Source of the DNA: a virus
Taxonomy: Duplodnaviria; Caudoviricetes
Virus record (IMG/VR): IMGVR_UViG_3300030330_003618
Coordinates: 1 to 62,996 of that record
Direction: 5' to 3' (one strand)
DNA length: 62,996 nt
Part shown: positions 1 to 62,996 of the stretch, in pieces
Layout of the letters: every line of letters begins with the position of its first letter
Position numbering within the stretch: position 1 is the first letter of the stretch
The notes under the pieces: generated by a model
Databases searched by the model: none
Seen by the model: the letters and a program-made list of their open reading frames with translations, nothing else
What the model was told of the DNA's origin: nothing
Translations under genes and position numbers: made by a program

Positions 1-99
1 TTCAAAGAGTACATCACACTTTAGAGGATAAAATAATAACAGATGAGTATTGGGATTATATCTGGGATTAAATAACAACTAACTAAATTACTAACTAAA
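1..99. repeat. Terminal direct repeat copy 1 (identical to 62898-62996), assembly circularisation overlap
   Basis: ttcaaagagtacatc...ctaactaaa is identical at both ends; it starts inside ORF 62789-62968. Confidence 0.95.
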
Positions 100-109
100 A
101 TTTTTTATT

Positions 110-280
110 ATGAATACATTTTTACTATACACGACAACGATATTGATTATAATATGTGGAATAGATTTCATGTTATTCTTTTGGCTAAGTGAAATATCTG
201 CTGAAATACTATTGATATCTTTCATTGTGTTTATGTTGAATATGTTTTCTGAGGGATATAAAAACGAAATTACTAACTAA
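110..280 (+). CDS. Small early membrane protein (56 aa, MNTFLLYTTTILIIICGIDF...), not in ORF track
   Basis: Translated by hand; two hydrophobic segments; preceded by the AACTAAAA..TATG motif. Confidence 0.7.
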   Translation: MNTFLLYTTTILIIICGIDFMLFFWLSEISAEILLISFIVFMLNMFSEGYKNEITN

Positions 281-292
281 AACTAACTAACT

Positions 293-505
293 ATGAAAAA
301 TTTGGAAATCGAAATTGTAATGCAATATATCGAGAACGAAATAGATGAAACTTACAAAAAAATATGTACCGAAAAACAGAGCAAGGAAGATGTTGATTTT
401 TTTGGAACGGACTTACTAATAGAAACGAAAGCATATAATGTAGGTAAATTTGACACACTAAGGGGAATAATGAGAAGGATAAACCTACTAACTAAAAATA
501 TATAA
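293..505 (+). CDS. Hypothetical early protein (70 aa)
   Basis: ORF track; AACTATG start context. Confidence 0.8.
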   Translation: MKNLEIEIVMQYIENEIDETYKKICTEKQSKEDVDFFGTDLLIETKAYNVGKFDTLRGIMRRINLLTKNI

Positions 506-507
506 CT

Positions 508-660
508 ATGAACGAATTAATAGAACAATTTGAGATGGAACAAGCTAACCTTGATACAAGTGTAAGCGACACCATAAACACTATCAATAATGCTTTGGCT
601 CCGTTTAGCAACAGAGAGGCACACGAAAAGATTAAACGAATGATTGAACGAATGAAGTAG
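508..660 (+). CDS. Hypothetical early protein (50 aa, MNELIEQFEMEQANLD...), not in ORF track
   Basis: Translated by hand; AACTATG start; TAG stop abuts the hammerhead. Confidence 0.75.
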   Translation: MNELIEQFEMEQANLDTSVSDTINTINNALAPFSNREAHEKIKRMIERMK

Positions 661-718
661 AGTATTACTGATGAGGTCTAATAGACCGAAACAGGAGAGC
701 AATCTCCTGTCTAATACT
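661..718 (+). ncRNA. Type I hammerhead ribozyme; predicted cleavage after C711 (GUC)
   Basis: Stem I AGUAUUA(661-667)/UAAUACU(712-718); core CUGAUGA 668-674; stem II GGUC-UAAUA-GACC; GAAA 688-691; stem III ACAGGAGA-GCAA-UCUCCUGU; C711. Confidence 0.95.
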
Positions 719-737
719 AAAACTAAAAATTATAACT

Positions 738-965
738 ATGAATACAGAAAACTTAAAAAACAAATATAAAGTACCTACTACAAACCTAGAAAGATATATC
801 AAATCTGAGGAAAGTTTAGATGTAATAATGAGTGTAATTCGACACCTTGAAAGGTTAGAGGTACAGGTAGTAAATTACAGAAAAGTAATAGAGGAGAAGA
901 ATGATGAGATTGCTGAATTGAATAAGAAAATTAAATTTAGAGAGCAAGCTATTAAATCAATGTAA
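738..965 (+). CDS. Hypothetical early coiled-coil protein (75 aa)
   Basis: ORF track; starts 26 nt after the ribozyme cleavage site. Confidence 0.8.
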   Translation: MNTENLKNKYKVPTTNLERYIKSEESLDVIMSVIRHLERLEVQVVNYRKVIEEKNDEIAELNKKIKFREQAIKSM

Positions 966-992
966 TAAAATTACTAACTAAAAACTATAACT

Positions 993-1253
993 ATGAAACT
1001 AATAATAACAAGACAAAGAAACGAGGCAAATGAAATATCTATTGATATGGATATGATAATAAACGAACAAATATACCATCTAACAGGATATGTAAACTTT
1101 CAAGAGTATGATGGGGAAATTGAGATAATATGCTTGTCTTCTACTTGGGATGAATATAAGGACTTGTATGACTTTTGTGAAGAAGCAGGATATGACTATG
1201 AAGAACTTAAAGATTATATTATAAACCATACAGACAATAAAATTACTAACTAA
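993..1253 (+). CDS. Hypothetical acidic early protein (86 aa)
   Basis: ORF track; repeat motif at start and end. Confidence 0.8.
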   Translation: MKLIITRQRNEANEISIDMDMIINEQIYHLTGYVNFQEYDGEIEIICLSSTWDEYKDLYDFCEEAGYDYEELKDYIINHTDNKITN

Positions 1254-1265
1254 AATACTACAACT

Positions 1266-1547
1266 ATGAATCTACTAAATAATGCACACGAACAAATAAC
1301 AAAAGATATGCTTGAGAATATGGAAGAAAGACAGGAAATAAAATTAAATAAAAGATTTACACTCTATAAGTATAGTATGGACTATTGTTTAGGGTACGAA
1401 TCAGATGAGGAAATACCTGAATACTTTGTATTAACAGACAATAAATATGATGATGAAGAAACATTTTGTGTACAATATGGGAAAGATGATGAAATTGTAC
1501 TAACAGATTTTTATGGATATGATGATGATGAAGATTTTAATAACTAA
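1266..1547 (+). CDS. Hypothetical acidic early protein (93 aa)
   Basis: ORF track. Confidence 0.8.
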   Translation: MNLLNNAHEQITKDMLENMEERQEIKLNKRFTLYKYSMDYCLGYESDEEIPEYFVLTDNKYDDEETFCVQYGKDDEIVLTDFYGYDDDEDFNN

Positions 1548-1560
1548 AAACTATACAACT

Positions 1561-2103
1561 ATGGGAAGAATATCAATTTATCAAATGGAGAACTCAGGTC
1601 TAGATGACTTTGATTTATTAACTTTTACAGATAACAACAACTATATGAAGAATCTAAGGAATTATATCTTAGATGTTATCAAGGAAGACTTTGAAGATAA
1701 TCATATATCTTCGGGAAGATATTCTAAAAACACTATTAATAATCCAAGTGAAGAAAATTTAATGCAACACTTTGTTAGTAGATTTGAAAAGGAATTTAAT
1801 CACGACTACAACAAGAAAATGTACCCAAGAATACACCGAAGAATAGAGAACTATTTACTAGGACTAGCTTATAACTTTGCTTATACATATCATAAACAAA
1901 CTGAACAAGCTATGGAATTTCACAATATAAATCTTAAGAATAAGAGAGATATTGAATATGTTAAAAGAAACTTGTTTGACTGGGTAAGCTCATCAAGTGG
2001 AAACGGCAGTAATTTTAGCAATTATTACTTTCAGATGATAACTCAAGAGATTATCAAACTATTAAATAAACATAAATTATACACTAAAAAATTAGCACTA
2101 TGA
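1561..2103 (+). CDS. Hypothetical early protein (180 aa; start moved from 1513 to ATG 1561)
   Basis: ATG 1561 follows the AACTAAAAACTATACAACTATG motif. Confidence 0.8.
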   Translation: MGRISIYQMENSGLDDFDLLTFTDNNNYMKNLRNYILDVIKEDFEDNHISSGRYSKNTINNPSEENLMQHFVSRFEKEFNHDYNKKMYPRIHRRIENYLLGLAYNFAYTYHKQTEQAMEFHNINLKNKRDIEYVKRNLFDWVSSSSGNGSNFSNYYFQMITQEIIKLLNKHKLYTKKLAL

Positions 2104-2213
2104 ATGACAAGGAATTAAAAGAATGGGAAGAAGAATATGAAGAAGCACAGAAAGATATTAAGTGGCTACTACCACTAATGATAACAATTATAATCTTAAA
2201 TATAATACTATGA
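2100..2213 (+). CDS. Small protein (37 aa) with acidic N-terminus and hydrophobic C-terminus
   Basis: Translated by hand; ATGA overlaps with both neighbours. Confidence 0.6.
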   Translation: MNDKELKEWEEEYEEAQKDIKWLLPLMITIIILNIIL

Positions 2214-2356
2214 ACAATATAAAACTAACAGACAAAGAACTAGAACTAATAAAAGATATGCTAATTGAAAAAATAAGATACAAAGGGGTACAGGAATTAA
2301 TGGTCAAGATCCAGAATCAACTGCAAAAACAAAAACAATTAACAGATACAGAATAA
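2210..2356 (+). CDS. Hypothetical protein (48 aa, MNNIKLTDKELE...)
   Basis: Internal ATG of track ORF 2162-2356, coupled to the upstream stop. Confidence 0.7.
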   Translation: MNNIKLTDKELELIKDMLIEKIRYKGVQELMVKIQNQLQKQKQLTDTE

Positions 2357-2372
2357 AATAAAGTGAAAATAA

Positions 2373-2404
2373 TTTGCATATATGGAATATAATTCGTATT
2401 ATTG
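2373..2404 (+). promoter_or_regulatory. Bacteroidota housekeeping-sigma promoter (TTTG-N20-TATTATTG)
   Basis: One mismatch to -33 TTTG / -7 TAnnTTTG consensus; shares a 16-bp repeat with the 62708 promoter region. Confidence 0.7.
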
Positions 2405-2438
2405 TAAACAGAAACATATTAACTAAAACTAAATAATT

Positions 2439-2678
2439 ATGAAACTAAACACAAAATACTTAACGAATCAATTAACTAACATACTAACTAACATTAAGAA
2501 TTTCTTAATCTATGTATTACTACATATAATAATGTTATCATTTTTAATAGGTGGTGGATATATGATGATGATGATAGTGATAGATAAATGGTGGATAATA
2601 CTTGAATTTATTTGTGGCACATCAATGTTGGCTTGTGGTGTTGTAATGATATTAACTGCAATAGAAATAAATAAATAA
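2439..2678 (+). CDS. Two-TM membrane protein (79 aa)
   Basis: Two hydrophobic stretches. Confidence 0.75.
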   Translation: MKLNTKYLTNQLTNILTNIKNFLIYVLLHIIMLSFLIGGGYMMMMIVIDKWWIILEFICGTSMLACGVVMILTAIEINK

Positions 2679-2704
2679 TAACTTAAAACTAAATAACTAT
2701 AACT

Positions 2705-2917
2705 ATGGAAACAACAAGCAAAAGAGTAAGTAAGTATATATATGGACACTCACTAGAACAAGATGATATTTCTGATGTAGCTTTGGAAATTGTAGATAAT
2801 ATGGTAGCAGAGGGTTTAATTCCTGATTGTACTGATACAGAAAACGAAAATGAATTTCAAGCACAAGATATCATAAGAGAAAGATTAACAGAATTGTTTA
2901 AACTTAAAACTAAATAA
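2705..2917 (+). CDS. Hypothetical protein (70 aa)
   Basis: ORF track. Confidence 0.8.
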   Translation: METTSKRVSKYIYGHSLEQDDISDVALEIVDNMVAEGLIPDCTDTENENEFQAQDIIRERLTELFKLKTK

Positions 2918-2919
2918 CT

Positions 2920-3204
2920 ATGACAAATAAAAAAACTGATGTATGGACTTTGATAGACACAAAGAATATGCTAACATTTGAAGAATTTAAAGAACAATTA
3001 ATACATTATAAAAGTAGTATATCGTGGATCGACAAGTATGGAACTAAACATTATATGTATGGGAAAGATCCGATATTAAATGATGAGGGGGAAGTAGATT
3101 TCGAGATGGCTACAAAAATATGGCGAGAAAATGACAGGAAGTGTTATGACTGGATCAGAGAAAATAAATTGGACTTATTAATTAAAAAAGATAATGGTTG
3201 TTAG
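2920..3204 (+). CDS. Hypothetical protein (94 aa)
   Basis: ORF track. Confidence 0.8.
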   Translation: MTNKKTDVWTLIDTKNMLTFEEFKEQLIHYKSSISWIDKYGTKHYMYGKDPILNDEGEVDFEMATKIWRENDRKCYDWIRENKLDLLIKKDNGC

Positions 3205-3300
3205 GTTTTTAGTTTGATAAGTAGGTTAAGGTTAGGAGAAACCAACCTTGTAATTATAAGCTATAAGTCGTGTTTATTCCCTACATATCATAATCAAAAC
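3205..3300 (+). ncRNA. Candidate structured intergenic RNA (long closing stem with two internal hairpins)
   Basis: GUUUU..UGAUA.GUAGG (3205-3225) pairs with CCUAC.UAUCA..AAAAC (3280-3300); inner hairpin AAGGUU-A-GG/CC-AACCUU. Confidence 0.45.
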
Positions 3301-3334
3301 AACTAAAGTATTAACTAAATAAATAAATAAAACT

Positions 3335-3634
3335 ATGGAATTTAAAGTATTAAGACAAGAAGTGTCAACAAGAGGTGGGGGAATAGAAATAGACCTAACA
3401 CCCTTTGGCTATAAAGGTGGTAAAATGACTGCATATCAAAACTATTTAGGTGGTGGTATGTTGGGAAGTATAGGTAATGATTGTAATATAAGTATAAATT
3501 GGGCAGAAGATCCAAAATTGGTAAATATAGCAAAACATTTGAGTATGTATTTTCATGGATTAACTAATCCGGATGATGAATATGAGGGGATGAGTTTTGA
3601 AGATAGACAGAGTTTGCCGACAAGTGCTTATTAG
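3335..3634 (+). CDS. Hypothetical protein (99 aa, glycine-rich GGGIE / YQNYLGGG motifs)
   Basis: ORF track. Confidence 0.85.
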   Translation: MEFKVLRQEVSTRGGGIEIDLTPFGYKGGKMTAYQNYLGGGMLGSIGNDCNISINWAEDPKLVNIAKHLSMYFHGLTNPDDEYEGMSFEDRQSLPTSAY

Positions 3635-3764
3635 ATATAGGTATCCTTTGATACAAATAGCTACTAACATTAAAGAAGTAGGAGTAGAAGTAGAAGATAA
3701 GAGATATATATATTTTTATATAAAAATTATATAACTAACATAATTATCTACTAATAATGGTCGG

Positions 3765-3793
3765 AAGGTACAAGAAAAAAATGACAATGTCAA
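3765..3793 (-). promoter_or_regulatory. Leftward (antisense) promoter-like element TTGACA-N17-TACCTT
   Basis: Plus-strand AAGGTA 3765-3770 and TGTCAA 3788-3793, 17-nt spacer, intergenic. Confidence 0.45.
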
Positions 3794-3818
3794 GTATTAA
3801 CAAAAAAAAAATAAAATT

Positions 3819-4043
3819 ATGAAACAACAATTAGCAGAAATAGTAATGTGGGAACAAGTAAGGCGAGATTGTAAATACCCAAAAGAAGATAACAATAATG
3901 GACTTATATATGGACTTTATCTTATAGATAATTTTGATGATGATAATTGGTGTGGAGATATTATAGATGTAGAGTGGTTTGAAACAGATGAAGAACGATA
4001 TAAGGTTATAAAAGAAAATAATTTGAAAATAATAAACGAATAA
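3819..4043 (+). CDS. Hypothetical protein (74 aa)
   Basis: ORF track. Confidence 0.8.
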   Translation: MKQQLAEIVMWEQVRRDCKYPKEDNNNGLIYGLYLIDNFDDDNWCGDIIDVEWFETDEERYKVIKENNLKIINE

Positions 4044-4047
4044 AATT

Positions 4048-4215
4048 ATGATTACAGATTTGAATAGAATCGTGGGTAAATTAAGGGAGTACGAAGAACA
4101 TGTAAAATACCCCAATTCCCCTATACATTTTAGGAAAGTGTATGAGAAAATAGAATCGTTAACGAATGATATTGAATATATCATTAATCAAAATAAATAT
4201 AATAAAATAGACTAA
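4048..4215 (+). CDS. Hypothetical protein (55 aa, MITDLNRIVGKL...), not in track
   Basis: Translated by hand; AATTATG start, fills the gap. Confidence 0.7.
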   Translation: MITDLNRIVGKLREYEEHVKYPNSPIHFRKVYEKIESLTNDIEYIINQNKYNKID

Positions 4216-4217
4216 TT

Positions 4218-4370
4218 ATGATGAAGTGGTATTACTTAAATATGAGTGATTGGGATAAAGAACCATACCAAGATCTTGTAGATAAAACAGAATGTGCATT
4301 TTGTGGAGATGTGTTAACAGAGTATAAATTTTGTTCTGATGATTGTGCAGTAGCATATTGGAACGATTAA
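4218..4370 (+). CDS. Small zinc-finger protein (50 aa; CAFC...FCSDDC), not in track
   Basis: CxxC and FCSxxC treble-clef-type motif. Confidence 0.75.
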   Translation: MMKWYYLNMSDWDKEPYQDLVDKTECAFCGDVLTEYKFCSDDCAVAYWND

Positions 4371-4381
4371 TAAATAAAATT

Positions 4382-4546
4382 ATGGAAGAAGAATATCAAT
4401 TAAATATAGATGAAGTTTTGTATCTACAAATGATAATACAACAGAATTTAGATGATGAATATGTAGAAGATGATGAAGTGTATAGAAATATGATAATAAA
4501 ACTACAAAATAAAATGTGTAGAATTAAAAATGAATTAAATAAATAA
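4382..4546 (+). CDS. Hypothetical protein (54 aa, MEEEYQLNIDE...)
   Basis: Internal ATG of track ORF 4343-4546 with AATTATG context. Confidence 0.7.
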   Translation: MEEEYQLNIDEVLYLQMIIQQNLDDEYVEDDEVYRNMIIKLQNKMCRIKNELNK

Positions 4547-4550
4547 AACT

Positions 4551-4796
4551 ATGAAAGAAAAACTTAAAAAACTAAAAGAAATAATTAAAGAACATAACAA
4601 AGATAGCCGGACTTATCTAGATGAATTTTACAAACAATGTAAAGATAATGAGGTAGAAGATTTAGATTGGGTAGAGTCGGACAATGATTACATGGACTTT
4701 ATAGGTCAACAACCTATTGAATATAATAGAATATATGATGTGGCTGTGTTGAATATAACAAATCAATTAATGGAAATTATTAACGACAAAAACTAA
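4551..4796 (+). CDS. Hypothetical protein (81 aa)
   Basis: ORF track. Confidence 0.8.
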   Translation: MKEKLKKLKEIIKEHNKDSRTYLDEFYKQCKDNEVEDLDWVESDNDYMDFIGQQPIEYNRIYDVAVLNITNQLMEIINDKN

Positions 4797-4801
4797 ACAT
4801 T

Positions 4802-5056
4802 ATGAAACAATTACCTGAAGATATTATAGCGACTAACGATAAGATCGCAGACGCAAAAGAACTATTAAGACAAAATGGATATTACATATACTCTATGTAC
4901 CACATTGAAGATGTACAATCTTATTATGAATGTACTGATTCAGAAGCTATGGATGTATTAGATCAAGCATTAGATAATGACGGAACTGCAAATCAAGTAT
5001 GGGAAAGTATAAGATACTTTGCTGAAGATATGGGTCTAAAAGAGAAAGAAGATTAA
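4802..5056 (+). CDS. Hypothetical acidic protein (84 aa)
   Basis: ORF track. Confidence 0.8.
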   Translation: MKQLPEDIIATNDKIADAKELLRQNGYYIYSMYHIEDVQSYYECTDSEAMDVLDQALDNDGTANQVWESIRYFAEDMGLKEKED

Positions 5057-5074
5057 TAACTTAAAACTAAAATT

Positions 5075-5263
5075 ATGGACAAGAAAAAAACTGCCTATCA
5101 AGATATAGTGGACAAGATCCACTACTATATGAAAAACCCACACAAGAATCCTTACGATGTATTTGATTATGAGGGAGATGAGGTTATACTAGACTCAAAT
5201 GGAGATCGTGTTGCCGGTAAAAACTTAAATAAAAAGAATTGGTATTATAATAAAAACAACTAA
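5075..5263 (+). CDS. Hypothetical protein (62 aa)
   Basis: ORF track. Confidence 0.75.
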   Translation: MDKKKTAYQDIVDKIHYYMKNPHKNPYDVFDYEGDEVILDSNGDRVAGKNLNKKNWYYNKNN

Positions 5264-5267
5264 AATT

Positions 5268-5438
5268 ATGGACAAAGAAGAATTAATAGAGTTATGGTTA
5301 AAGGCAGAAGAAGAATTAAGAAATGGAAATGATGATAGATGTATAGAGTTTAAAGATTCTTTTAGCGAACAATATGCAAAACTAAATAAGAACGAACAAG
5401 AGTATGTTAAGGACTATTTAGATAGTTGTGGGGCATAA
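5268..5438 (+). CDS. Hypothetical protein (56 aa, MDKEELIELWL...), not in track
   Basis: Translated by hand. Confidence 0.7.
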   Translation: MDKEELIELWLKAEEELRNGNDDRCIEFKDSFSEQYAKLNKNEQEYVKDYLDSCGA

Positions 5439-5465
5439 AAATAACAAATTGAAATAAATAAAATT

Positions 5466-5627
5466 ATGAAAACAAGAAATAAATTAACAATAAAAAGTTC
5501 AACAAACACATTGTTGGGTAAGCAATTAGCTTGGTTTAATCACTTTGTTGATTACGTAGGCAATATAGATAGCAACCTATATAACGAAGCGTGTGAATAT
5601 GCAGATAATTGCGAAGAAAGTATATAA
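5466..5627 (+). CDS. Hypothetical protein (53 aa, MKTRNKLTIK...), not in track
   Basis: Translated by hand. Confidence 0.7.
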   Translation: MKTRNKLTIKSSTNTLLGKQLAWFNHFVDYVGNIDSNLYNEACEYADNCEESI

Positions 5628-5644
5628 CAGTTAAAACTAAAATT

Positions 5645-5788
5645 ATGACAGATAAAACAAATCACGTATACGAAGACACGTTTCAAGTAGATATTAAGTA
5701 TACATACGATAGAAAACACAACAAGGTTTACGATATAGATTCTGCTGTTAGAGAATTTAATATGTTAATAAAAAAACTAATGAAATAG
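5645..5788 (+). CDS. Hypothetical protein (47 aa, MTDKTNHVYED...), not in track
   Basis: Translated by hand. Confidence 0.7.
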   Translation: MTDKTNHVYEDTFQVDIKYTYDRKHNKVYDIDSAVREFNMLIKKLMK

Positions 5789-5792
5789 AATT

Positions 5793-5933
5793 ATGAATAT
5801 ATTTATTAAAGGGACAATGATTTTGGTAATGTTGTATTTGTGTATATTTATAATTATATTTAGTTGTGTTGTAGCACTATCATTATATACACAAATAATA
5901 CTACCGGTAATAAAATTTATTAAAAGAATATAA
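5793..5933 (+). CDS. Small membrane protein (46 aa), not in track
   Basis: Translated by hand; long hydrophobic stretch, basic C-terminus. Confidence 0.6.
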   Translation: MNIFIKGTMILVMLYLCIFIIIFSCVVALSLYTQIILPVIKFIKRI

Positions 5934-5934
5934 T

Positions 5935-6264
5935 ATGGATAGTATAGCTTTCAGAAAAACACACGATCTTAAATTCTCAATAGAGAAGGTGGGCAAGAAG
6001 TCAAACTCCTGTCAAGATTATGTAGTTGAAAAAAAACTACAAAGAATAATTAAAAAGAGTATTAACGATCAAGAAACTATAAATTCTCTAATAGGAAAAA
6101 AAGGTTTTGGTAAAACAAAAGAATCTGTTATTGAAAATATAAAAATAGTTATTCAAGATAAAATTACATCATTAAATGGCGAGGAGATTAAGTACTATAT
6201 TGAAAAATTACAGAATGTTCCTGTTTCGAGTTGTATTAAGCAAATTAGAAAAAAATACTCATAA
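5935..6264 (+). CDS. Hypothetical basic protein (109 aa)
   Basis: ORF track. Confidence 0.75.
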   Translation: MDSIAFRKTHDLKFSIEKVGKKSNSCQDYVVEKKLQRIIKKSINDQETINSLIGKKGFGKTKESVIENIKIVIQDKITSLNGEEIKYYIEKLQNVPVSSCIKQIRKKYS

Positions 6265-6472
6265 TTTAGATCTGTTAGTAAATCATACTGAAGAAGATGA
6301 TCTATATAAATATATATTCGAGGACAATGTAGATATAAAAAAGGTAATACCGAGAGGTTGTACCAAGGAATTTATGGAAGTCCTACAACATTTATTATAT
6401 CATTATGAAGAAGATCAAGAATATGAAAAATGTCAGAAGATTTCCGACCTTATAGATCAGTGGGAGATGTAA
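6176..6472 (+). CDS. Hypothetical protein with C-terminal UVR-like motif (EEDQEYEKCQKI); true start may be downstream
   Basis: ORF track; ExYExC helical hairpin motif. Confidence 0.65.
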   Translation: MARRLSTILKNYRMFLFRVVLSKLEKNTHNLDLLVNHTEEDDLYKYIFEDNVDIKKVIPRGCTKEFMEVLQHLLYHYEEDQEYEKCQKISDLIDQWEM

Positions 6473-6521
6473 TGTCAACTGGCTTTGCGAATTATTTTGA
6501 AAAAAACTTTCAATAATAGTA

Positions 6522-6550
6522 GGATAAATGAAACTTATTTACTATATTGC
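6522..6550 (+). promoter_or_regulatory. Probable promoter of the recombination/replication operon
   Basis: GGATAAATGAAACTTATTTACTATATTGC closely resembles the 62711-62740 promoter. Confidence 0.55.
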
Positions 6551-6578
6551 AATTAAAATTAACTTAAATTAAATTAAA

Positions 6579-7088
6579 ATGACGAAACTTAAAACAATAA
6601 ATATCAAAGGAAAGAAGTATGTAGAAGTAAACGAAAGACTTAAATACTTTAGATCAAACTACCCTAATCACTCATTATTATCTGAGATAACCCATATTGA
6701 CTCAGAGATGGTTGTTGTAAGAACACAAATAATTGATCCAGAGGACAGGATTTTAGCTAGTGGTCATGCACATGAAGAAAAGTCTGCTAGTTTTATAAAC
6801 AAGACAAGCTATGTGGAAAACTGTGAAACATCATCATGGGGTAGATGTTTAGCTAATTTTGGTATAGGGATTGATGAATCTGTAGCTTCAGCTAACGAAG
6901 TAGATATAGCTATTAAAAAACAGAACATAAAATCTACAACAAAGAAGATGACTATAGAAATTTATCAAGCTATGATGAAGTCTATCAAAGATGGTAATAA
7001 GGATCTTGTTGTTGAGCATATGAATAAATATGATATGACTAAGGCTCAGAAAGATGCGATAACTAAAGCTATTAACGAAACAGCATAA
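6579..7088 (+). CDS. Single-strand annealing recombinase (Rad52/Sak/ERF-like)
   Basis: KGKKYVEVNERL N-terminus and ENCETSSWGRCLANFGIG motif; adjacent to an exonuclease. Confidence 0.75.
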   Translation: MTKLKTINIKGKKYVEVNERLKYFRSNYPNHSLLSEITHIDSEMVVVRTQIIDPEDRILASGHAHEEKSASFINKTSYVENCETSSWGRCLANFGIGIDESVASANEVDIAIKKQNIKSTTKKMTIEIYQAMMKSIKDGNKDLVVEHMNKYDMTKAQKDAITKAINETA

Positions 7089-7093
7089 TAATT

Positions 7094-7867
7094 ATGGATG
7101 AAATAATAAAAAAGTTTACCTCTGATGAGGTATACTACAGCGACTATTCTTTTGTGACTAACTCACAATTAGGATTAATTAAACGGAGCCCAGCCACCTA
7201 TCAACATTACAGGGATAATCCCAGTGATCGACCTATAACTAAAGCACTTAATTTTGGTAAAGCATTTCATATGTGTATGCTTGAGCATGATAAGTACAAA
7301 AAAGAAGTTGTGGTTGAACCTGATGTAAATAAAAGAACTAAGGCTGGTAAAGAGGAGTATCAAAAGTTTTTAACCCTACATGAGGGTATGACAATACTTT
7401 CCCATGATGAGGATGAATCTTTATCTGGTATGAGAAAGAAGTTAACATCTTCTGTTGAAGCTATGGAATTATTGTCTGGCGGTATAGCTGAACAAGTTAA
7501 TGTATGGAATGATCTAGATAGTAAAATACCTTGCAAAGGGAAAGCTGACTACTGGAATAAGGATAGGAATATTCTTGTAGATATAAAAACAACTCAAGAC
7601 TCTAGTCCTGATGGATTTAGAAAGTCAGCATATAAATATGGATACGATAGACAAGCCGCTTTTTATTTAGATGGCTTTAATGTGGACCAGTTTTGGTTTA
7701 TAGTTATAGAAAAGTCGGCTCCATATAACATGGCTATATATAATTGTAGCGAAGAATTTATAGATGAAGGTAGAATGAAATATAAAAGACTACTGGATAT
7801 GTATAGCTTATACTTTATTCAAAACCTTTTTGATCCATATGAACATGTATATACAGGAACATTATAA
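7094..7867 (+). CDS. PD-(D/E)XK exonuclease, RecE/exonuclease VIII-like (DUF3799-type)
   Basis: FGKAFH, CKGKAD, VDIKTT and YDRQAAFY motifs. Confidence 0.88.
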   Translation: MDEIIKKFTSDEVYYSDYSFVTNSQLGLIKRSPATYQHYRDNPSDRPITKALNFGKAFHMCMLEHDKYKKEVVVEPDVNKRTKAGKEEYQKFLTLHEGMTILSHDEDESLSGMRKKLTSSVEAMELLSGGIAEQVNVWNDLDSKIPCKGKADYWNKDRNILVDIKTTQDSSPDGFRKSAYKYGYDRQAAFYLDGFNVDQFWFIVIEKSAPYNMAIYNCSEEFIDEGRMKYKRLLDMYSLYFIQNLFDPYEHVYTGTL

Positions 7868-7879
7868 AAAATAAAAACT

Positions 7880-8086
7880 ATGAGTAAATTATTTAGAACA
7901 TTAAAACAGAATAAAATAACAAAAAACAAAGTTGGAGAGATAACAGGATTATCTATACCAACAGTCAGAAAGTATCTTAAAAATCCAGATTTATTTTCTG
8001 TGGGAGACGGTAAGACTATAGTAGAACACTTAAACAAACAAAACTATGAGTACACTTTTGGAGAATTATTTAACATTAAAGAATAG
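7880..8086 (+). CDS. Small HTH DNA-binding protein
   Basis: KNKVGEITGLSIPTVRKYLKNP helix-turn-helix pattern. Confidence 0.7.
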   Translation: MSKLFRTLKQNKITKNKVGEITGLSIPTVRKYLKNPDLFSVGDGKTIVEHLNKQNYEYTFGELFNIKE

Positions 8087-8795: not shown

Positions 8796-8804
8796 TTTAA
8801 CACT

Positions 8805-8840
8805 TATGGAGGGGGTTTACGGGGGTATACCTCCTCTATA
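8805..8840 (+). terminator. Stable hairpin after the SSB-like gene (attenuator or mRNA stabiliser; no clear U-tract)
   Basis: 12-bp stem TATGGAGGGGGT/ACCTCCTCTATA including G-U pairs. Confidence 0.55.
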
Positions 8841-8853
8841 TAAAAACTAAACT

Positions 8854-20019: not shown

Positions 20020-23000
20020 TTACTGTGTTTTTTTATCATCTTCTCTCGCCCATACCGTCATCATATATTGAATTTGAGGATCTGTTAATATACCCTCTTC
20101 AGTAAATAATTTTTCTATAGTTTCGTATCTAGTCGTATTACCTAGAGCCTCTTTTTGAGCCTCATAAATTATAAACGCTGATGTCATCTTTTTACCCTGC
20201 TTAAAATCCATAATAGCTTGTTGAAGATCAGATTCGTATTCCCCAAAATTCCAATCCATCATAATTTTTCTAGCTATTCTGAGATCTACCTGATCCCTAT
20301 TCCATAATTTTTGATCTATCACTGGATCATTACCAAGCCTACCTTCAATCTGTCTATGAGTTTCAGCTATAACATCTTGCATTAAAAAATAATAATCATC
20401 TCTAGCATCATTACTAAAACGCAATTTTTTACCATCCACATCTACCATAGCACCTGAGTTAGGATCTTTTCTTAAAGAAAATTTTTCAGATGCCGCCTTA
20501 TAAGCTAAATTTAAGTTAGCCTGGAACCTCTCCTCTGTTTCTCTTATGTGGTCAGCTTCAGCTTGTAATTGTGTTTTTTGATTTTTAAGAAGATCAATTT
20601 CTCCAATATATCTTTTTGTTACTGGACCAAAAATGTCATTTAAAAATAAATTCATTTGATTACCGTACTTCTCTTTTTCATACTCACTTAAACCTCCAGT
20701 GGCAGCCACATAACTATGATTAACCACAGCGTTCCATGGACTTCTATCCATATTAGTGAGCATAGAGCCTAATGCTGACTTTGCAGTTGTAACACCGAAA
20801 CCTCCTTCTTTTAAACCCATTTTATCAAATCTATTAGATAAATCCCTTAACCACCTATCTTCATATTTATCATAATCACCCTCATATTGAGTATATCCAC
20901 TAGCTGCCTCATTGTAATCATTCCATACAGGTCTATTGTAAAAAGCATCATAGTTACCTAAAACTTTTAAAGATACATTTAAAAGAGGGTTTGTTGATAC
21001 CAGATCCCTAGGGTTACCTCCACCAGCTGGTATAGCTTTCTGTAGTATTCTACCGTAAGAATTTTTCTCATCACCTCTACCCCAAGGAGTATATGATGCA
21101 AAATCTTTAGACTGAATAAAGTAATCACTACCTGTTATGTGTTTAAACGCTAACCCTTCCAAAGGCAATCTAAAAACATTTAATCTAGCATCACTAGGTA
21201 TCTTTAAATATCTAGGAGTCACAATCCTATTGTCAGACAACTGATTTTTTATTTCAGCTATCCTTGCATCTCTTTCTTCTCCAATCTGCATGCTTTCAGC
21301 TATTTTTAATTGCTCTTGTAGAGCCACTTCCTTTTCTTGACTAACTATATCTGTAACTTTACCAGGTAATATTATACAGTGGTAATTTTCTCGATCATAA
21401 GGGCTAATATGATTTATATAGTATCTTCTATTTTTATATAGTTTTTCTCTTATCTTTTTCTCTAATTCCCTATTTCCACTTGCTACAGCCTTATCTAAAT
21501 TATCTTGTAATCTTTTTTCTTCATCTTCATCTAAGATATCAAAATGTTGTAAGTTCATAGCCATTAAACCAAGACCAAAAACTGAAGCCCATTGTGCTGT
21601 ATCCCAAATAAATTGCTTAGGGTTTTCACTAACATACCTAACACTCTTATCAAACACTTGTGCCGCAGCATTAAGGTAAGCAAAACCTAAAGAATCAATA
21701 AACTTAATTGCTTTACCTCCATTGTTAAAGTTAGCGTAGTCAACTGCATTAGCCACAGCTCTTTTTTTAATATTTATAAGGTCCTGACCAGTAGGCTCTT
21801 GTCCATCATTTTTTTCTTTATATTCTTGTGTGTATTTTTTAATCCACCTTCTAGTATTAGCAAGTCTACCTGTCATTTCAGAAGTTGAGTTCATAGATGC
21901 AAAAACATTTTTAATTGTATCCCATCCACTTTTTGTATTAGGGTTTGTGTAAGGAGCGTCATCACCATACAACTTAGACATTTGTTCTCTAGCTGCCTTT
22001 TCTCTAGCTTGCTCTTCATTGAGAGTGTTTTCAGGGTCTGATATTATCTCCCTTGCTCTTTTTGTTAACGCCACTTCGTCTATAGCTAAATCAGATGAAT
22101 AATCCATTAATCCATATCTAGTTAAAAACTCTAAAGATCCTCCAAGCATCTTATACTCTTGACTAAGTGGACCATTTGTAGCTGCATCATACATTACAGA
22201 AGCCCAATCAACAAATGCCACCCCAAATTTAGAACCTAAACCTAGGAAAGGTACAGGATTGGTGGCCATGCCATTATAAGTGTCTGTAAACATAACTTGC
22301 TGAGCGAAATCATAAAATATGTTAGCAACAAAGAAAAATGGTGCACCAACACCAGTAGCGAATACTTTAAGTGCACTACCACTCCACCTTAAAGGTGCAG
22401 TAAGTAATTTAAGCTTATCGCCAGCAGGAACCATTTCTCTAGGGTGAGCAAATAAACTTTGATAAGCTGCATTCTTCATAGCAAACCTAATTTTCTTACC
22501 CCCTTCGTTATAGCTCATTTCAACATATCCAGGTTTTACTTTTTCCCCATCTTTTAATATATACCCTATATCTTCTATAGACATTTGAAGACCATTAATA
22601 TACTCAAATCCTTTTTTAGTTACTTCAGATATTATATTATATATACCTTTTCTAACTTCATTCTCAGCTCTTAACTTAGCTCCTGTAGCTATCGTGTTCT
22701 GCAATAACTTAACTGGATCCATGTATAAAACACTATCACTACCCTGCTTTAACATTTTTAACGGAGACTCTAAGTGATCACCTTTGTCTGACCGACCTGA
22801 TTTTCTTTGTTCATTTAAATTTCTTTCTGCAAATATTACATAGTCAACAAATTTTCTTGGATTATATTTTAAGTTTTTAAGTTCATTATAAGTTGCTTCA
22901 TCTATTAATCCCGCTTCAAAATTTCTTTTTAGCTCATTAGAATATTCTTCAAAAAGTTTATCTGTAGTTTCTCTAATAACCTTAAAATCATTACCAAGTC

Positions 23001-26000
23001 TTTTTTTCATGTTATCAATCATACCTTGAGCAAGCTCCTTGTTCATCATAATTCTACCCTCACCTTTAGGGTTTTTAACATCTGGATGTTTCATTCTCCA
23101 AGGCCAAACCTTTTTCTTAGTAGTTGGGTCTACCATTGATTTCATTCCAGGTTTAATTTTAATAGAAATATCCTTACCACTCTTATCTTTAGTAAGATAT
23201 TCTAAATAATAACCTGATCCATCCTCATTTTTCTTAATATTGATTTTAGAGTTGTCTTTATATATATTATCTAATTGACCCTCGGCTTGTTTTATCGCTT
23301 CCTTTATAGCGGCTTTTTCTTCTTTTGTTTTAGCTTTACCAAGCTTTTTAGACAGAGTATTTAAATTCTTAATAATAACGTCAGCTGCTGATTTTTGAGC
23401 ATCAGATAAATTATCAAGCTCTATTATTCTTTCAAGTGTAGATAGTTGACCTACCAGTTTTATTTGAGCAGAAGATAAAGCTCCCCATATTCTTTTATTT
23501 GCTTGATCTATAAGTTCCTTAGCTGTTCCTGGAACTGTTAACCATAAAGTTATAGAGGCAAGTGCATTCGAAGCAGTTTCTCCCAAATTCATATCTTTAC
23601 CTATATTTCTAATAGATCTTTTTATTCTAAATTTAGTGTCTACTGTTTGTTCTTTTAACTTAACATACGACTCATCTAAAAACCTCATAAAATCTGATAA
23701 CCTTCCAAAGAAATTATCTTTACCTCTAGAGAATGCTGCATCTTGATCCTTCTGTAATTCTTCTAAAGTTTCTGTGTAATCTGAATCCGTCCACCCCTCT
23801 AGGTCTATATCAGAATTTATAGCATTAATCATTTCAAGAGTTTGTCTTTCTCTCATCTCTTTTAATCTAACCTCCTCCTCTTCAAGTTTAGCCGCTTCCT
23901 CTTCTGTTAATTCAGTTTCACCAGAGACACCAGGTTCTTTAGGGTTAAATAATCCTTCTTGCTCAGATATAAAGTTTTTAAATAATTCTCTTATCTCAGC
24001 CTCTTGGTCTGGTATAAAATTATCCCCATCCTTTTGAGCCTTTTTTATATAATCTATAGCTGCATCTACAGCTTTAGCTACACTAGAAGTAGCCCTAAGA
24101 ACAACAGAAGCTGTTTTAATAGCCGCCCTAATAATAGGTATAGACATAAACGGATCTGCGTAAGCATTTCCACCTAAATCTTTATATATCTGATCTAGTT
24201 TATCTGCAAAGTCTATTAAGATTTGAAAACGCTGAACGCTTCTGCTAGAATACTCATCTCCTGTTCTGAGATCTGAGATGTCCTGGGCGTTGTCCCCGCT
24301 ATTAATAGCTCTTTGCCTTCTGGCAAGCTCTCTATTGATGTCTGTTTCAAACGACTTTTCTTGTCTTGTAGTTGTTTCGTATTCCCCATTTGTAAAAACT
24401 TTTGTGTTAATATATCCATTTTCTACGGTATTAAAAATATCTTCACCGTATTTTTCTTGTATTTCTTTTATAGCTTTATCTGCACCTTCCACCCATTTAG
24501 ATTCAAAATCCTTAACATTACCTACTGTTAACCCCTCTCCCATAGGCTTCATTAAATATTCAGGAATAAACTGCATTGATAAACCTATAACTTCTCCTTT
24601 TTGATTGTAATTTACAGTCATTCCCTCAACACCATTAGGACCAAAATGCTCATTAGCAAACATTCTAGCATCAGTCAGAGTCATAGGAGAATCAAACTCT
24701 ATTCTTCTAAAAGGTCTAGCGTTAGGATCTTGTTCTGTTGTTACTTTAGATGCGAACACAGACTCTTGTTCATTGTTAATAGCTGTAGTTAACAACTCAT
24801 CAAATAAAGGGGATAAATCTGTTCCTGCATCAACTAACATTTCTAAATTTATAGTATCTTCTACTTGATTCATATATATACCTTCTGACTGGTATGGTCT
24901 TCCCATAGCACCTAACTGAGCAACTATAGCATCTAAGTTTTGAAGTGCTTGATCCATCCTTACAGAACCTTGCATGGTTGCCGCTATCACAGCAGAAATT
25001 TCTTCATCGGTAGCATTTCTTTCTAAAGCCTTTTGAATAGCTCTAGCCGCAGCACTATATATTCTTCTTTTTTGATCTGGACTTGTGTTACCTATAAATG
25101 TGCTAGCACCTATCATAACTCTATCTGTTATCTCAGCAGATTTAACAGCATTCGTCATAGTTGCTTGATCTTTAGCTGTACCAGTTCTGTCGGCTCCACT
25201 AAAACCAGACTCGTCATATATTTGTTTTTCTATAAACCACATAGCAGCCTGTAGATCGTCAGGGTTTAAGTTCAACTTCTTGGCAGCTATAGCATATACA
25301 CTTTGTGCAAAAGCAAAATCTTTATTTCCTACTGTTGTTTCTTGAGACTGTCTTCTTCTAAATGGCACAAACCCCCCTTGAGAATATAATATTCTTCTCA
25401 TATTTCTAGCAGCCCAAACATCAATAGTAGCACTTCTATCTCTTAAGGATAAGTTGTTGTAAAACTGTCCTGTTTTATTAGCTGGATTATTAGATAACCA
25501 ATTACCATATAAAACCCTGACAATACCTGAAGTAACTACTGGAAGACCGAATGATTTTCCGTTTTTCTTTTTTATAGCAGATACAACATCTTTATCAGAA
25601 GAAGCTTGTCTTATAAGCTCTTTAGCTTTAAATAAAGCTTTTTTACCTGTACCAAAAACACCTTGATCATACTGAGCCATTATAGCTTTAACCTTATTGT
25701 CATATATCTGTAAAGACTCATCAAACTTACCCTCTGAGTAAGATTTTAAAACTTCAATAGATTTTCTGAAGTTAACTTGAGGTGGTGCTTGTGGAGATGT
25801 AACTCCTAGTAACTCAAAGAATATTGGTGCATTTCCACCAAATTTCTGTTGTATTAAGTTTTTTGTTTTACTATACCAACCTGTAGCCTTTTTTAAATCT
25901 ATTTTAGAACTATTAGCGTTAAAATCTTGAATAAGTAAATCTGAAGCTAATTCTATTTTTTGCTGCTCACTTAACCCCTGAAAGATAGGAGCTCCACTAA

Positions 26001-29000
26001 AGTTAAAAGGAAGCTTTTTTATTACAGGTTTACCATCTTTTAAAACTACAAATCCTCCGTCAAATAATATTTGCATAGGGTCTGATAAGCTACGATCATT
26101 TTTCATATCAACATTATTATGCTGATCTATTTTATTTTGTAAGTTATCTATTTGTTTAAGTTCACTTTTAGTGTAATTACTTCTAACAACTTTAGGGTTA
26201 ACTCTTAACTTAGCTATTTTATATATCTCTTTAGCTTCTATTTCGTTATACTGATCTGGATATTTCTCTTGTAAAGCCTCAAGAAATTTGGGTGCAGTAA
26301 CTTTGTTAGTTATAGCTTCTTCAGCAAATTTAACAACCCCATCATTACTAAACAGAAATCTTCTCTTTAACATTTCTATAGACTTATCAGAACCAACCTC
26401 CTTAAAAGCCTCACCAACTGTAAACTCCCCACTTTCAGTCATTTGCTCTTTAAGAGATTGTTTTACTGATCGGTCTGATTTTATAGCGTCAATAGCTTTA
26501 TTAAAAGCAACGGAAACACTCTGTCCCGCTTTTAAGCCTGCTTTTAACGTTTTTAAGAACAGTTCCCACGCCACTGGTCCTAGACCCATAGTTACGTCCA
26601 TATACAGGTTTTTGCCCTTATTTCGATTTATTCTATCTAATTCAGAGTCAATACCTCTAATTGTTCTGTCTACAAGGCTTTCTGTGTTTTCTGGAGATTT
26701 TACATTTGGATCAACGTCAGAATCATGAGCATTTGTAGATGCATTTATTAAATCTATTACGCCAGCTAAATCTTCTGTTATTTGATCATTAGACTCCCTT
26801 AGATCCATATTAACAGGACCTTGCATAGCTGTCTTTATAGTTTTTATAGCCTCCTTTTTAGTTCTACCCACTGTAGTGTTAGATGCTAATTCTACCCACT
26901 CCTGTTTACCATATTTCTTCATTAATAAAAATGGCTTACCATTAACAGTTCCTTCATAAACCTTCTTACTTCTATTGTACTTAAAAGGAGTGTCTTGAAC
27001 CACTTCAGTGTCTGTATCTGTAGAAACTTCTGTTGTTGATGGTTGTTGAAATACAAATTCATCAGGAAGTAATCCTATTTTTTGCTCCGCAAAAGGTCTA
27101 TCTTGAGGTCTTACGTAGTCAGGATCCCCCTTCTTAGGCATACTGCCATCCTCTCTTCTTAAACTTTGGTTAAAGTTAACCCATGAGTTTTGACCTCTAG
27201 TCTCTGTTGTCATAGCCCTCCTAGCGTCATGACTAAACATTCTAGAATGATTAAGCCAAGCATTTTCTTCTCCTTTAATTCCAAATCCATTACCCAACTC
27301 TGTGTGACCAAAAAAGTCGTGAACAGCTCTAAATAAATCATTAACAAGAAGGGAGTTACCGTTAACATCTTTAAATTCTGTAGGTTGTAATAGAGGGTTT
27401 TCCTCTCTCATTTGATCTGTGATTTGATCTTGACCAAAACCAGCTTCTGTTCCAAATATATATAAATGCTTATTATCTCTAACATCTTTTATCATTTCAT
27501 CACTATTAGCGTAAGGCTCTCCTTTACCAGTGTAAACTTCAATAGTATACCCAGCATTTACAAGTGATCGATACTGCATTTGAGTTTCATTAGCTAAAGC
27601 GGTGTATGCTTTTTTAACTTTTGGATCATTAGGATTATTATCCATAGCATCATAAGCGTCAGCTATATTTTTAGAGTTTTCCTCATTAATTTCAGTAACT
27701 GGAATAGCATCAGAATGTTGTATCCCTAGTTGAGGGGAATTGGTGTTTATATAATTTGACGTTATTTGTGATGTTTCTGGATTAGGATCATTGAATAATC
27801 TGTTTCCAGGGTTAACAGAACTTGCGTTTCCAGCAGAGCTTCTCACTGACTCATCCTCAAATAAAGTTAGTTGTCTATCTCCAGATGCTGGCATACCAGG
27901 CTCCTCCTCACGATCTGTTTGAGTTGTGGGCAAACCGCCAGGACCCTCTCCAATAGTAATAGTAGGTCCTCCAGGAGCATCACCTCCGTCATCACCCCCA
28001 TTTAAATTACTTAGTTGATCAGGAGTCTCATTAACCATATTATTCCAATCGTCATCTCCCCATAGTGTTAACTGCTCCCCTTGTGGTGATTTTTTATATT
28101 CATCCATAACACCTAAGAACTCTTCAACCAATTTAGTGTCTTCAGGATTTAGAGATCCAGAGTCCAGCATATCTTGAAAGTTTTGTTCTATACTATTAGC
28201 TGTTAAAGTTGTAAAAGCTGTAGATAACCCTACACAAATAATAGCTGTAGTCATCAACTTATTTATTCTCTCATCTTTTGAGTGACCAACTGTAGCCATT
28301 AAAGCTTCTTCCCAATTAAAGCCCATATTAGTTAAGTTCTCAACAAACTCACCTGAATACTCAGCTAATAACTCAGCACCACCACCCGCAAGTATTCTTG
28401 GAGGGAGAGTAGCAACTTTAACGCCTGGTTTACCTAAATTTCTATACAGTGTTAATAACCCTCTAGTTACAGGAGTTCTTTTAAATAATGCGTCCATAGT
28501 TTGCTGCGTAGCACCCTCGGCAGCACCCATTCTCCATGTAGCTTGATCACCTGATGTCATTTCAAAAGCAACCGCACCCTTAACTACTTGCTCACTAAAG
28601 TCCCACCAAAAGGCACCAGCTTTTGTACTTTTGGCAGCAAGCATAGCATTATTGATTTTAGGTATTTTGGTAAGAGTTTTTAAACCAGCACCAGCAATAG
28701 GCATAGTAGCAATCATTTCAATCATAATAGGAAGTGTAGTCCCTACACCTTGAGCTACCATATCATTTAGACTTATTTCTCCAGCTACCTTTTGTTCATC
28801 TGTTAACTTTATTCCGTAAGCATTAGCTATATCGTCATAGTAATTAATCATATCGTCTTCACTGTGAACATGTCTTTTATGTACAGCATGACCAAAAGAT
28901 TCTGACATTTGCCTTAAGAATAATCCTGTTCCAGTTTTTTCTGACCATTCTTTTCCTGGATCAACATTGAATGTTAATACATTAGATATAGCTACTAATT

Positions 29001-58155: not shown

Positions 58156-58479
58156 TTGGACAGGGATAATTATCTAAAATATTACAGAAATGTTCTATTT
58201 GATTTTAGAGATAAATACAGCCTTAAAGTGTCAGATATAGAGTTTTTATTCTTTGTTTACGATAGAGATTACTTTACAGGTTACACTATAGCTAAAGATT
58301 ATAGGTGCTCAAATAGCTTTATAACAAGAAACCTTCCAAAATTAATGAATAAGGGGTATGTGACTATATATCTTGAGAAGGCACACAATAGAGCTAGGAG
58401 ATATATGATATCCCAAAGAGGAAAAATATTAGTTACTAAATTTTATAAAAAACTAAAAGAATATAACTATGGCTTATAG
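58156..58479 (+). CDS. MarR-like winged-helix DNA-binding protein (TTG start)
   Basis: LKVSDIEFL..ITRNLPKLMNKGYV..RRYMISQRGK. Confidence 0.75.
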   Translation: MDRDNYLKYYRNVLFDFRDKYSLKVSDIEFLFFVYDRDYFTGYTIAKDYRCSNSFITRNLPKLMNKGYVTIYLEKAHNRARRYMISQRGKILVTKFYKKLKEYNYGL

Positions 58480-62707: not shown

Positions 62708-62740
62708 TTTGGATATATGAAACCTTTTTATATATCTTTG
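62708..62740 (+). promoter_or_regulatory. Main early promoter TTTG-N21-TATCTTTG
   Basis: Perfect Bacteroidota -33/-7 consensus upstream of the first early ORF. Confidence 0.85.
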
Positions 62741-62788
62741 CTAAAGATGACACACACAAGGTATGTCAATAACTAAAACTATACAACT

Positions 62789-62968
62789 ATGAATAAAATT
62801 AAATGTAGAGAATATCAAGAAGCAAAGATATTATTGTTAAGGGACTTGAAGAAATTAGTAAGACACATTGAGAACGATAAAATGGAAACTAATCATATTC
62901 AAAGAGTACATCACACTTTAGAGGATAAAATAATAACAGATGAGTATTGGGATTATATCTGGGATTAA
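62789..62968 (+). CDS. First early gene (59 aa, MNKIKCREYQEAK...), not in track
   Basis: Translated by hand; AACTAAAACTATACAACTATG start context. Confidence 0.75.
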   Translation: MNKIKCREYQEAKILLLRDLKKLVRHIENDKMETNHIQRVHHTLEDKIITDEYWDYIWD

Positions 62969-62996
62969 ATAACAACTAACTAAATTACTAACTAAA
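62898..62996. repeat. Terminal direct repeat copy 2
   Basis: Identical to 1-99. Confidence 0.95.

Follow-up and report, generated by a model that had tools for sequence, protein, structure and literature searches.

In the accessible parts of the published work, hammerhead ribozymes of phages and prophages are described as flanking prophage genes, and a role in the processing of long phage transcripts has been proposed for them (Perreault et al. 2011, PMC3088659). Tandem prophage hammerheads cut polycistronic RNAs of ~2 kb in vitro, and in HF1/HF2 the hammerhead precedes a start codon by 13 nt, a 5' end having been mapped to within 3 nt of its cut site (PMC3088659). A 2019 review repeats the processing idea, calls for more work and leaves the purpose in phages open (PMC6765202). 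Type I hammerheads also fill short intergenic regions before the ORFs of fungal and plant RNA viruses, cutting a few nucleotides before the start; there, the predicted 5' end was confirmed in vivo and a role in cap-independent translation was proposed (PMC13725137). From what these papers state, the protein-free processing of a polycistronic message is a hypothesis already published in 2011 (PMC3088659) and 2019 (PMC6765202).

The stretch of DNA analyzed here at its full length (the window) corresponds to an entire virus record (62,996 bp), a podophage genome of ~63 kb. Its two ends (1-99 and 62898-62996) are an exact 99-bp overlap and an ORF starting at 62789 crosses the junction, which indicates a circular assembly with an arbitrary position 1. 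Terminase, portal, primase-helicase and virion proteins were recognized through PHROGs, and the portal protein matched only phages of Flavobacteriia (Flavobacterium, Cellulophaga, Maribacter and Tenacibaculum) at 25-35% identity. The structural block contains a giant ORF of 3843 aa (20020-31551, minus strand), with DUF7178, just under the Pfam cutoff, and two PHROGs of unknown function as its sole matches. Positions 1-8000 of the window had no megablast match in the phage collection, and a blastn search of the same collection with 655-740 returned only two chance-level matches, both to the A/T-rich leader.

The term early operon is inferred from the arrangement of the locus, where tiny ORFs on one strand form a block that follows a single promoter-like site. 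This site (62708-62740, plus strand) has the pattern TTTG..TAnnTTTG, which we take to be the Bacteroidota promoter consensus, and lies in the non-coding gap just before ORF 62789, with the ribozyme ~0.8 kb further downstream, beyond the circular junction. It is a lead only, as the pattern has six matches versus 3.1 expected, which is not significant as a count. In a sigma-70 scan of 1-3500, promoter-like sites were no commoner than in shuffles, and no terminator-like site was found on the plus strand of the same region. The other structured intergenic gaps of the plus strand were only 8796-8853, a plain hairpin, and, weakly, 3205-3334. The former is a 58-nt gap preceding an ORF start and harbors a strong 12-bp G/C-rich hairpin (8805-8840, plus strand; -21.5 kcal/mol) with a z of about -6 against mononucleotide shuffles and -3 against dinucleotide shuffles, and with no T-run after it.

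The consensus of type I hammerheads consists of CUGANGA, GAA, an A15.1-U16.1 pair and a non-G at the cleavage site, together with G10.1-C11.1 at the base of stem II. Judged by its sequence, window 661-718 (plus strand) encodes a complete, true type I hammerhead. The 5' strand of stem I (AGUAUUA, 661-667) pairs over 7 bp with the 3' strand (UAAUACU, 712-718). The core CUGAUGA (668-674, presumably C3-A9 in hammerhead numbering) was located by the sequence, the descriptor and the family model alike. Stem II (GGUCU/AGACC, 675-687) pairs 675-679 with 683-687, i.e., 5 bp with a 3-nt loop, or 4 bp with the 5-nt loop UAAUA in the family register, and has the pair G675-C687 at its base (GC in 36/37 family rows). 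The conserved GAAA (688-691) follows, with A691 pairing with U710, and stem III (691-710) is formed by 8 bp between 691-698 and 703-710, capped by the GNRA loop GCAA (699-702). CUGAUGA, GAAA, A691-U710 and C711 all agree with the consensus, and the core positions are invariant or nearly so across 37 relatives. From this architecture, self-cleavage is predicted between C711 (C17) and U712, the cleavage triplet being G709 U710 C711. The element is flanked on the same strand by two small genes, ORF 508-660 (50 aa) upstream and ORF 738-965 (75 aa, ATG at 738) downstream, neither of which has a Pfam match above the cutoff or a PHROG family.

A first-pass annotation had described a hammerhead spanning 656-740 and starting on the base after the stop codon of ORF 508-660. 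The conserved core nucleotides, the three stems and the GNRA loop are all where it had put them, and stem I does begin one base past the TAG (658-660), at 661. The span itself needs correction: it does contain the hammerhead, but the motif proper is 661-718. Folding of 650-730 gives the hammerhead, with no deviation, as the minimum free energy (MFE) structure (-21.7 kcal/mol, z -3.9), a value equaled by none of 200 shuffles, and the 58-nt core alone (661-718) gives the same MFE fold. In both, three helices surround one junction, with loops closing stems II and III and with stem I open. No T-run follows the hairpins. With more context, the predictions change at stem I. In a 321-nt fold, stems II and III are kept, and the upstream coding sequence takes up part of the core together with the 5' strand of stem I in an alternative pairing; in a 240-nt context, 712-718 are unpaired with a probability of 0.93. 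The formation of stem I would, from these longer folds, depend on co-transcriptional folding or on tertiary contacts that the programs do not model.

The first-pass annotation had suggested an Infernal search against the Rfam hammerhead models, and its outcome was negative by the thresholds of the database: nothing in the window reached the gathering score. The best match under permissive filters was RF02275 (HH9), with 24.8 bits versus a gathering score of 52 (E = 5e-4 in 401 nt and 0.083 over the whole window), and at E <= 1 the whole window gave only this weak match and two chance-level ones. Ten related loci rich in these hammerheads behaved in the same way, with one hammerhead match at E <= 0.01, below the threshold. 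A descriptor requiring CUGANGA, GAAA, U followed by non-G and three stems, applied to both strands, found a single site in the window (stems of 7, 5-6 and 8 pairs); the same descriptor gave four loose matches in 300 first-order Markov random genomes (~0.013 per genome), all with much shorter stems allowed. A covariance model built from 37 other phage hammerheads with the window excluded (R1) scored the site at 65.7 bits, with a rough E of 1.2e-14. No other or degenerate hammerhead was detected in the window, where the next R1 match had only 13.7 bits. A chance origin is excluded.

A pattern fixing just the core and the stem II of the window retrieved 31 loci in viral contigs (designated by L numbers). 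A full type I hammerhead was present in 29 of the 31, each with its own stem I and stem III sequences; at L031 and L034 the pattern matched without a full hammerhead. Scanning of these loci added 39 further distinct hammerheads. Typical of the subgroup are a stem II region of 13 nt that hardly varies and an A/U-rich stem I of 6-7 bp. We aligned 37 sequences, omitting L006:4064-4138 (an odd long stem III), L013:3387-3450 (a near-duplicate) and the window. Paired cells amounted to 98.8%, versus 26-38% with the partners slid, a percentage that is partly built in, since the extra copies were chosen with a descriptor that demands pairing, although the diversity of pair types is not. Changes on both sides were seen in 12 of the 16 pairs, and none of 500 shuffles reached the covariation score of these 37 sequences. 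Covariation in related phages had been put forward as a check in the first-pass annotation, and all three stems do covary. When the window is compared with L035, stem I, core and stem II are identical, and stem III has an entirely different sequence that is still paired.

Between one and five hammerheads were found per locus. The genome of the window has one, and four related records, searched whole, have one or two each. With a single hammerhead here and up to five in other genomes, the ribozyme is not a general feature of this operon. L011 (1039-3369) and L030 (136-2403) each carry five hammerheads within ~2.3 kb, one before each of five successive small ORFs.

A tertiary contact between stem I and loop II is needed for fast hammerhead cleavage at low Mg2+. 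As a candidate for this contact, the AGU(656-658)/ACU(722-724) extension of stem I had been proposed to dock loop II. The extension does form in the fold of 650-730, but it is not conserved in the nearest relatives, as L035 keeps two of the three pairs and L033 and L028 lack the helix, and we discarded it. The covariation within the family points to the nucleotides directly flanking stem I instead. This was examined in the 39 of 43 members whose stem II region is 13 nt long, leaving aside four with other lengths. Loop II starts with U in 38 of them, and an A directly precedes stem I on its 5' side in 38. The final base of loop II covaries with the nucleotide just 3' of stem I (U/A in 27, A/U in 10 and other combinations in 2). 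Both states are found within L020, and also within L030; the window has A/U. This pattern fits either a small two-pair contact or a joint lengthening of both stems by one pair.

Cleavage at C711 would leave a leader of 26 nt (712-737) on the downstream RNA, predicted to be unstructured, and the claim that this leader carries the initiation motif of ORF 738-965 was borne out. An invariant AACTAAA block and TAYAACTATG at the start codon are common to ten ORF starts of the plus strand (78-112, 261-295, 476-510, 706-740, 961-995, 1234-1268, 1529-1563, 2673-2707, 58437-58471 and 62757-62791), i.e., to that of ORF 738-965 and nine others. TAYAACTATG alone has eight matches versus 1.0 expected. No Shine-Dalgarno sequence is visible at any of the ten, and AACTAAA..TAYAACTATG probably serves this phage group as its signal for translation initiation. 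The 3' strand of stem I, which doubles as the first 7 nt of the leader, sits where other leaders carry TTACTAA. Owing to this overlap with the leader motif, the ribozyme looks like a 51-nt addition before an ordinary leader.

The position of the cut relative to the genes appears to follow a rule across the family. In a set of 40 distinct hammerheads that included the window and Cellulophaga phage phi19:3, 32 had an ORF of at least 30 aa whose ATG followed the cut site by 20-27 nt, versus 335 of 8800 random same-strand positions (3.8%). Several of the eight outliers are artefacts of the ORF criterion, e.g., where the ATG falls within stem I or the ORF has fewer than 30 aa. In 18/40, an upstream open frame ended with its stop codon within -3 to +4 nt of stem I, versus 550/8800 in the control (6.3%). 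Some leaders have Shine-Dalgarno-like AGGA runs (L011, L023 and L032) and others lack them, so the rule holds across hosts with different start signals.

The closest relatives of this region are L035/L014 (two hammerheads) and L036. A homologue of ORF 993-1253 is present two ORFs downstream of a hammerhead in L035 (81% identity) and one ORF downstream in L036 (66%). A homologue of ORF 2705 (2705-2917; 79% identical) is located upstream of the hammerhead in L036 (2891-3094) and 2 kb downstream of it in the window. In the window, a structured element of ~65 nt (3221-3285, plus strand) stands alone in the gap 3205-3334, upstream of ORF 3335-3634, and no hammerhead core was found around it. It is ~80% identical to a 58-nt insert within stem III of the hammerheads of L036 (3330-3400) and L046 (about 880-945, minus strand). 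These two hammerheads have kept their cores, with different but compensated stem II sequences, and that of L036 has an extra U after the core. L048, which matched a second insert pattern, looks unrelated. On a more speculative reading, which we regard as doubtful, the module would tolerate cargo such as this insert of L036 and L046, free-standing here at ~3221-3285, and stem III could dock a regulatory domain.

Our preferred reading, to which we assign a probability of about 80%, is that this is a true hammerhead that would cleave itself in vivo and split a polycistronic message. Such a protein-free cut of the early message was also the mechanism put forward in the first-pass annotation. The block of small same-strand genes would be transcribed as a long message running through the gap, in which the 58-nt motif is predicted to fold into the three-helix junction. 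The 2'-OH of C711 would then attack the next phosphate, so that the RNA cuts itself after C711; such an attack is the established chemistry of hammerheads. The weak, A/U-rich stem I of 7 bp would then fall apart and, with a duplex of only -3.8 kcal/mol, the products should part. The upstream RNA would carry the stop codon and the 51-nt ribozyme body, ending in two hairpins and a 2',3'-cyclic phosphate. This product is predicted to keep both hairpins (-19.2 kcal/mol). The downstream RNA would begin with a 5'-OH and the unstructured 26-nt leader with the usual start motif of the phage; the first 79 nt of this product have a predicted MFE of 0. As the most likely consequence, the two parts of the message would become uncoupled and decay at different rates, the upstream part being protected by its hairpin-capped 3' end and the downstream part having its 5'-end-dependent decay altered by the 5'-OH. 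These separate decay rates are the least certain step of the model.

We considered and rejected an unmasking of the start site by cleavage. The mean unpaired probability of 719-752 is 0.84 uncleaved and 0.92 cleaved, with an MFE of 0 for the cleaved leader; exposing the start site is not the purpose, since it is predicted to be open before and after the cut. A more ambitious extension of self-cleavage, which we regard as doubtful, is that the 51-nt module docks on the leader of a gene and cuts 20-27 nt before the start, giving each early gene a uniform unstructured 5'-OH leader and the gene upstream a hairpin-capped 3' end. The 20-27 nt would then correspond roughly to the smallest leader that a ribosome needs, and the module would be a natural counterpart of synthetic ribozyme insulators, in hosts with and without Shine-Dalgarno sequences.

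Self-cleavage that splits the message has to be weighed against readings in which the cut is absent, incidental or conditional. An inactive hammerhead-like sequence, arisen by chance or decayed, or a signal at the DNA level (hairpin promoter, terminator or origin) would fit the Rfam score below gathering. All the core positions are canonical, however, an independent family model gives an E of about 1e-14, the stems covary around an invariant core, and neither a T-run after the hairpins nor a terminator-like site on the plus strand of 1-3500 was found, which makes this reading highly improbable. The evidence from gene neighborhoods bears on a real ribozyme acting chiefly as a portable junction module. 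In that case, ~51 nt (the 5' strand of stem I, core, stems II and III and GUC) would have been placed before a standard leader, the first bases of which provide the 3' strand of stem I, and the module would spread or persist by mosaic reshuffling of early-gene cassettes, with a cleavage that is nearly neutral or marks borders. Promoter-stem-loop cassettes of T4-type phages are similar in this respect. Several observations go in this direction. Between relatives, the ribozyme is nearly identical outside stem III, yet the ORFs directly flanking it, including ORF 738-965, have no similarity between the window and L035 or L036. The gene order is shuffled, with the ORF 2705 homologue on opposite sides of the hammerhead in L036 and the window, and L030 and L020 have a hammerhead before their homologue of ORF 3335, unlike the window. 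L046 has the same insert-bearing hammerhead as L036, yet no early protein of the window matches L046. The overlap of the stem I 3' strand with a leader motif common to other ORFs adds to these. Still, we consider this reading unlikely: the core and three stems are intact, with compensatory changes, in at least 40 copies, which argues for selection on the RNA fold and not on DNA homology alone, and copies within the same genome differ in stems I-III, leaving only ~15-20 nt of identity for recombination.

The cut might also be conditional. A ribosome that stops at the TAG (658-660) would sit on the 5' strand of stem I and, given the alternative pairing of this strand in the longer folds, cleavage may compete with the translation of the upstream ORF or be tuned by it. 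Taken further, ribosomes ending ORF 508-660, or the pairing with upstream coding RNA, would decide the folding, and the cut would serve as a readout of the translation state of the upstream gene or of its timing. The stop abuts or overlaps stem I here and in 18/40 family members, and the 5' strand of stem I has a predicted alternative partner in the upstream coding sequence. Genome compaction explains the abutting stops equally well, though; no covariation evidence for the alternative pairing was found, and 22/40 members lack an abutting stop by the criterion used. We therefore see a cut that reports on upstream translation as decidedly improbable, and self-cleavage that splits the message remains our choice.

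Members of the family are also present in cultured phages. Among five cultured or named phage records searched with R1, two were positive: Flavobacterium phage elemoA_5-9B (MT497111.1 27355-27418, minus strand; 50.9 bits) and Cellulophaga phage phi19:3 (KC821608.1 21766-21820, minus strand; 47.5 bits). No family member was found by this search in phi38:1, MW202828 or Panino. Both hammerheads lie, unannotated, between same-strand hypothetical genes. In elemoA_5-9B, a 35-aa CDS is annotated on the opposite strand over the hammerhead (MT497111.1 27343-27450; L044 744-851), probably a spurious call. Phage phi19:3 also has a pistol ribozyme (L043 104-171, minus strand; KC821608.1 about 20369-20436) on the strand of the hammerhead and ~1.4 kb downstream of it, with 46.5 bits versus an Rfam gathering score of 34.5. 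A literature search for hammerheads together with Cellulophaga or Flavobacterium phages found no link between them among the matches listed.

The abundance of hammerheads in phage DNA has been recognized since 2011 and, for this genome alone, the result is a gain in annotation and no surprise. What the family adds is a well-defined subgroup of hammerheads that the Rfam thresholds miss and a quantitative rule for its placement (the cut 20-27 nt ahead of the start, the stop abutting stem I) that any functional model must explain. With unannotated members in elemoA_5-9B and phi19:3, which have culturable hosts, the processing hypothesis is directly testable there.

In the early mRNA of T7, the host RNase III cuts long imperfect hairpins between cistrons, leaving 5'-phosphate and 3'-OH ends and an upstream product that ends in a hairpin. 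The likeness to the present locus, i.e., intercistronic cuts that split an early message and leave a hairpin at the upstream end, is no more than an analogy and implies no family relation: in the phage studied here, the RNA would cleave itself, generating 5'-OH and 2',3'-cyclic phosphate ends, and a long imperfect hairpin of the RNase III type is absent, the longest helix in the MFE folds being 8 bp. RiboJ is an engineered insulator derived from a satellite RNA, with a hammerhead plus an added hairpin upstream of the ribosome-binding region, that provides a uniform short 5'-OH leader. The element described here is likewise a hammerhead just upstream of the ribosome-binding region but, unlike RiboJ, it is natural, and insulation would apply by analogy only.

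Like the type I hammerheads of RNA viruses, it fills a short intergenic region, here in a DNA phage of bacteria and not in a eukaryotic RNA virus (compared with the available text of PMC13725137). With the phage type I hammerheads (clan CL00010), as far as they are described in the accessible text of PMC3088659, it shares the core, the three-helix junction, the open stem I, the location between same-strand genes and the processing hypothesis. It differs from those in Rfam in that it falls under the gathering score of every Rfam hammerhead model. The 20-27-nt spacing from cut to start of the present subgroup is not stated as a rule in the accessible part of that paper (PMC3088659), the alignments and figures of which may already include members of the subgroup. 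A parallel in position is HHphage of HF1/HF2, as described in the same part of PMC3088659, which also belongs to the early region of a tailed dsDNA virus and precedes a start codon by a few nucleotides in a polycistronic transcript, with a 5' end mapped near the cut. HHphage has a variant core and is found 13 nt before a helicase gene in a virus with an archaeal host, whereas here a canonical core is followed by a 26-nt leader and a 75-aa ORF.
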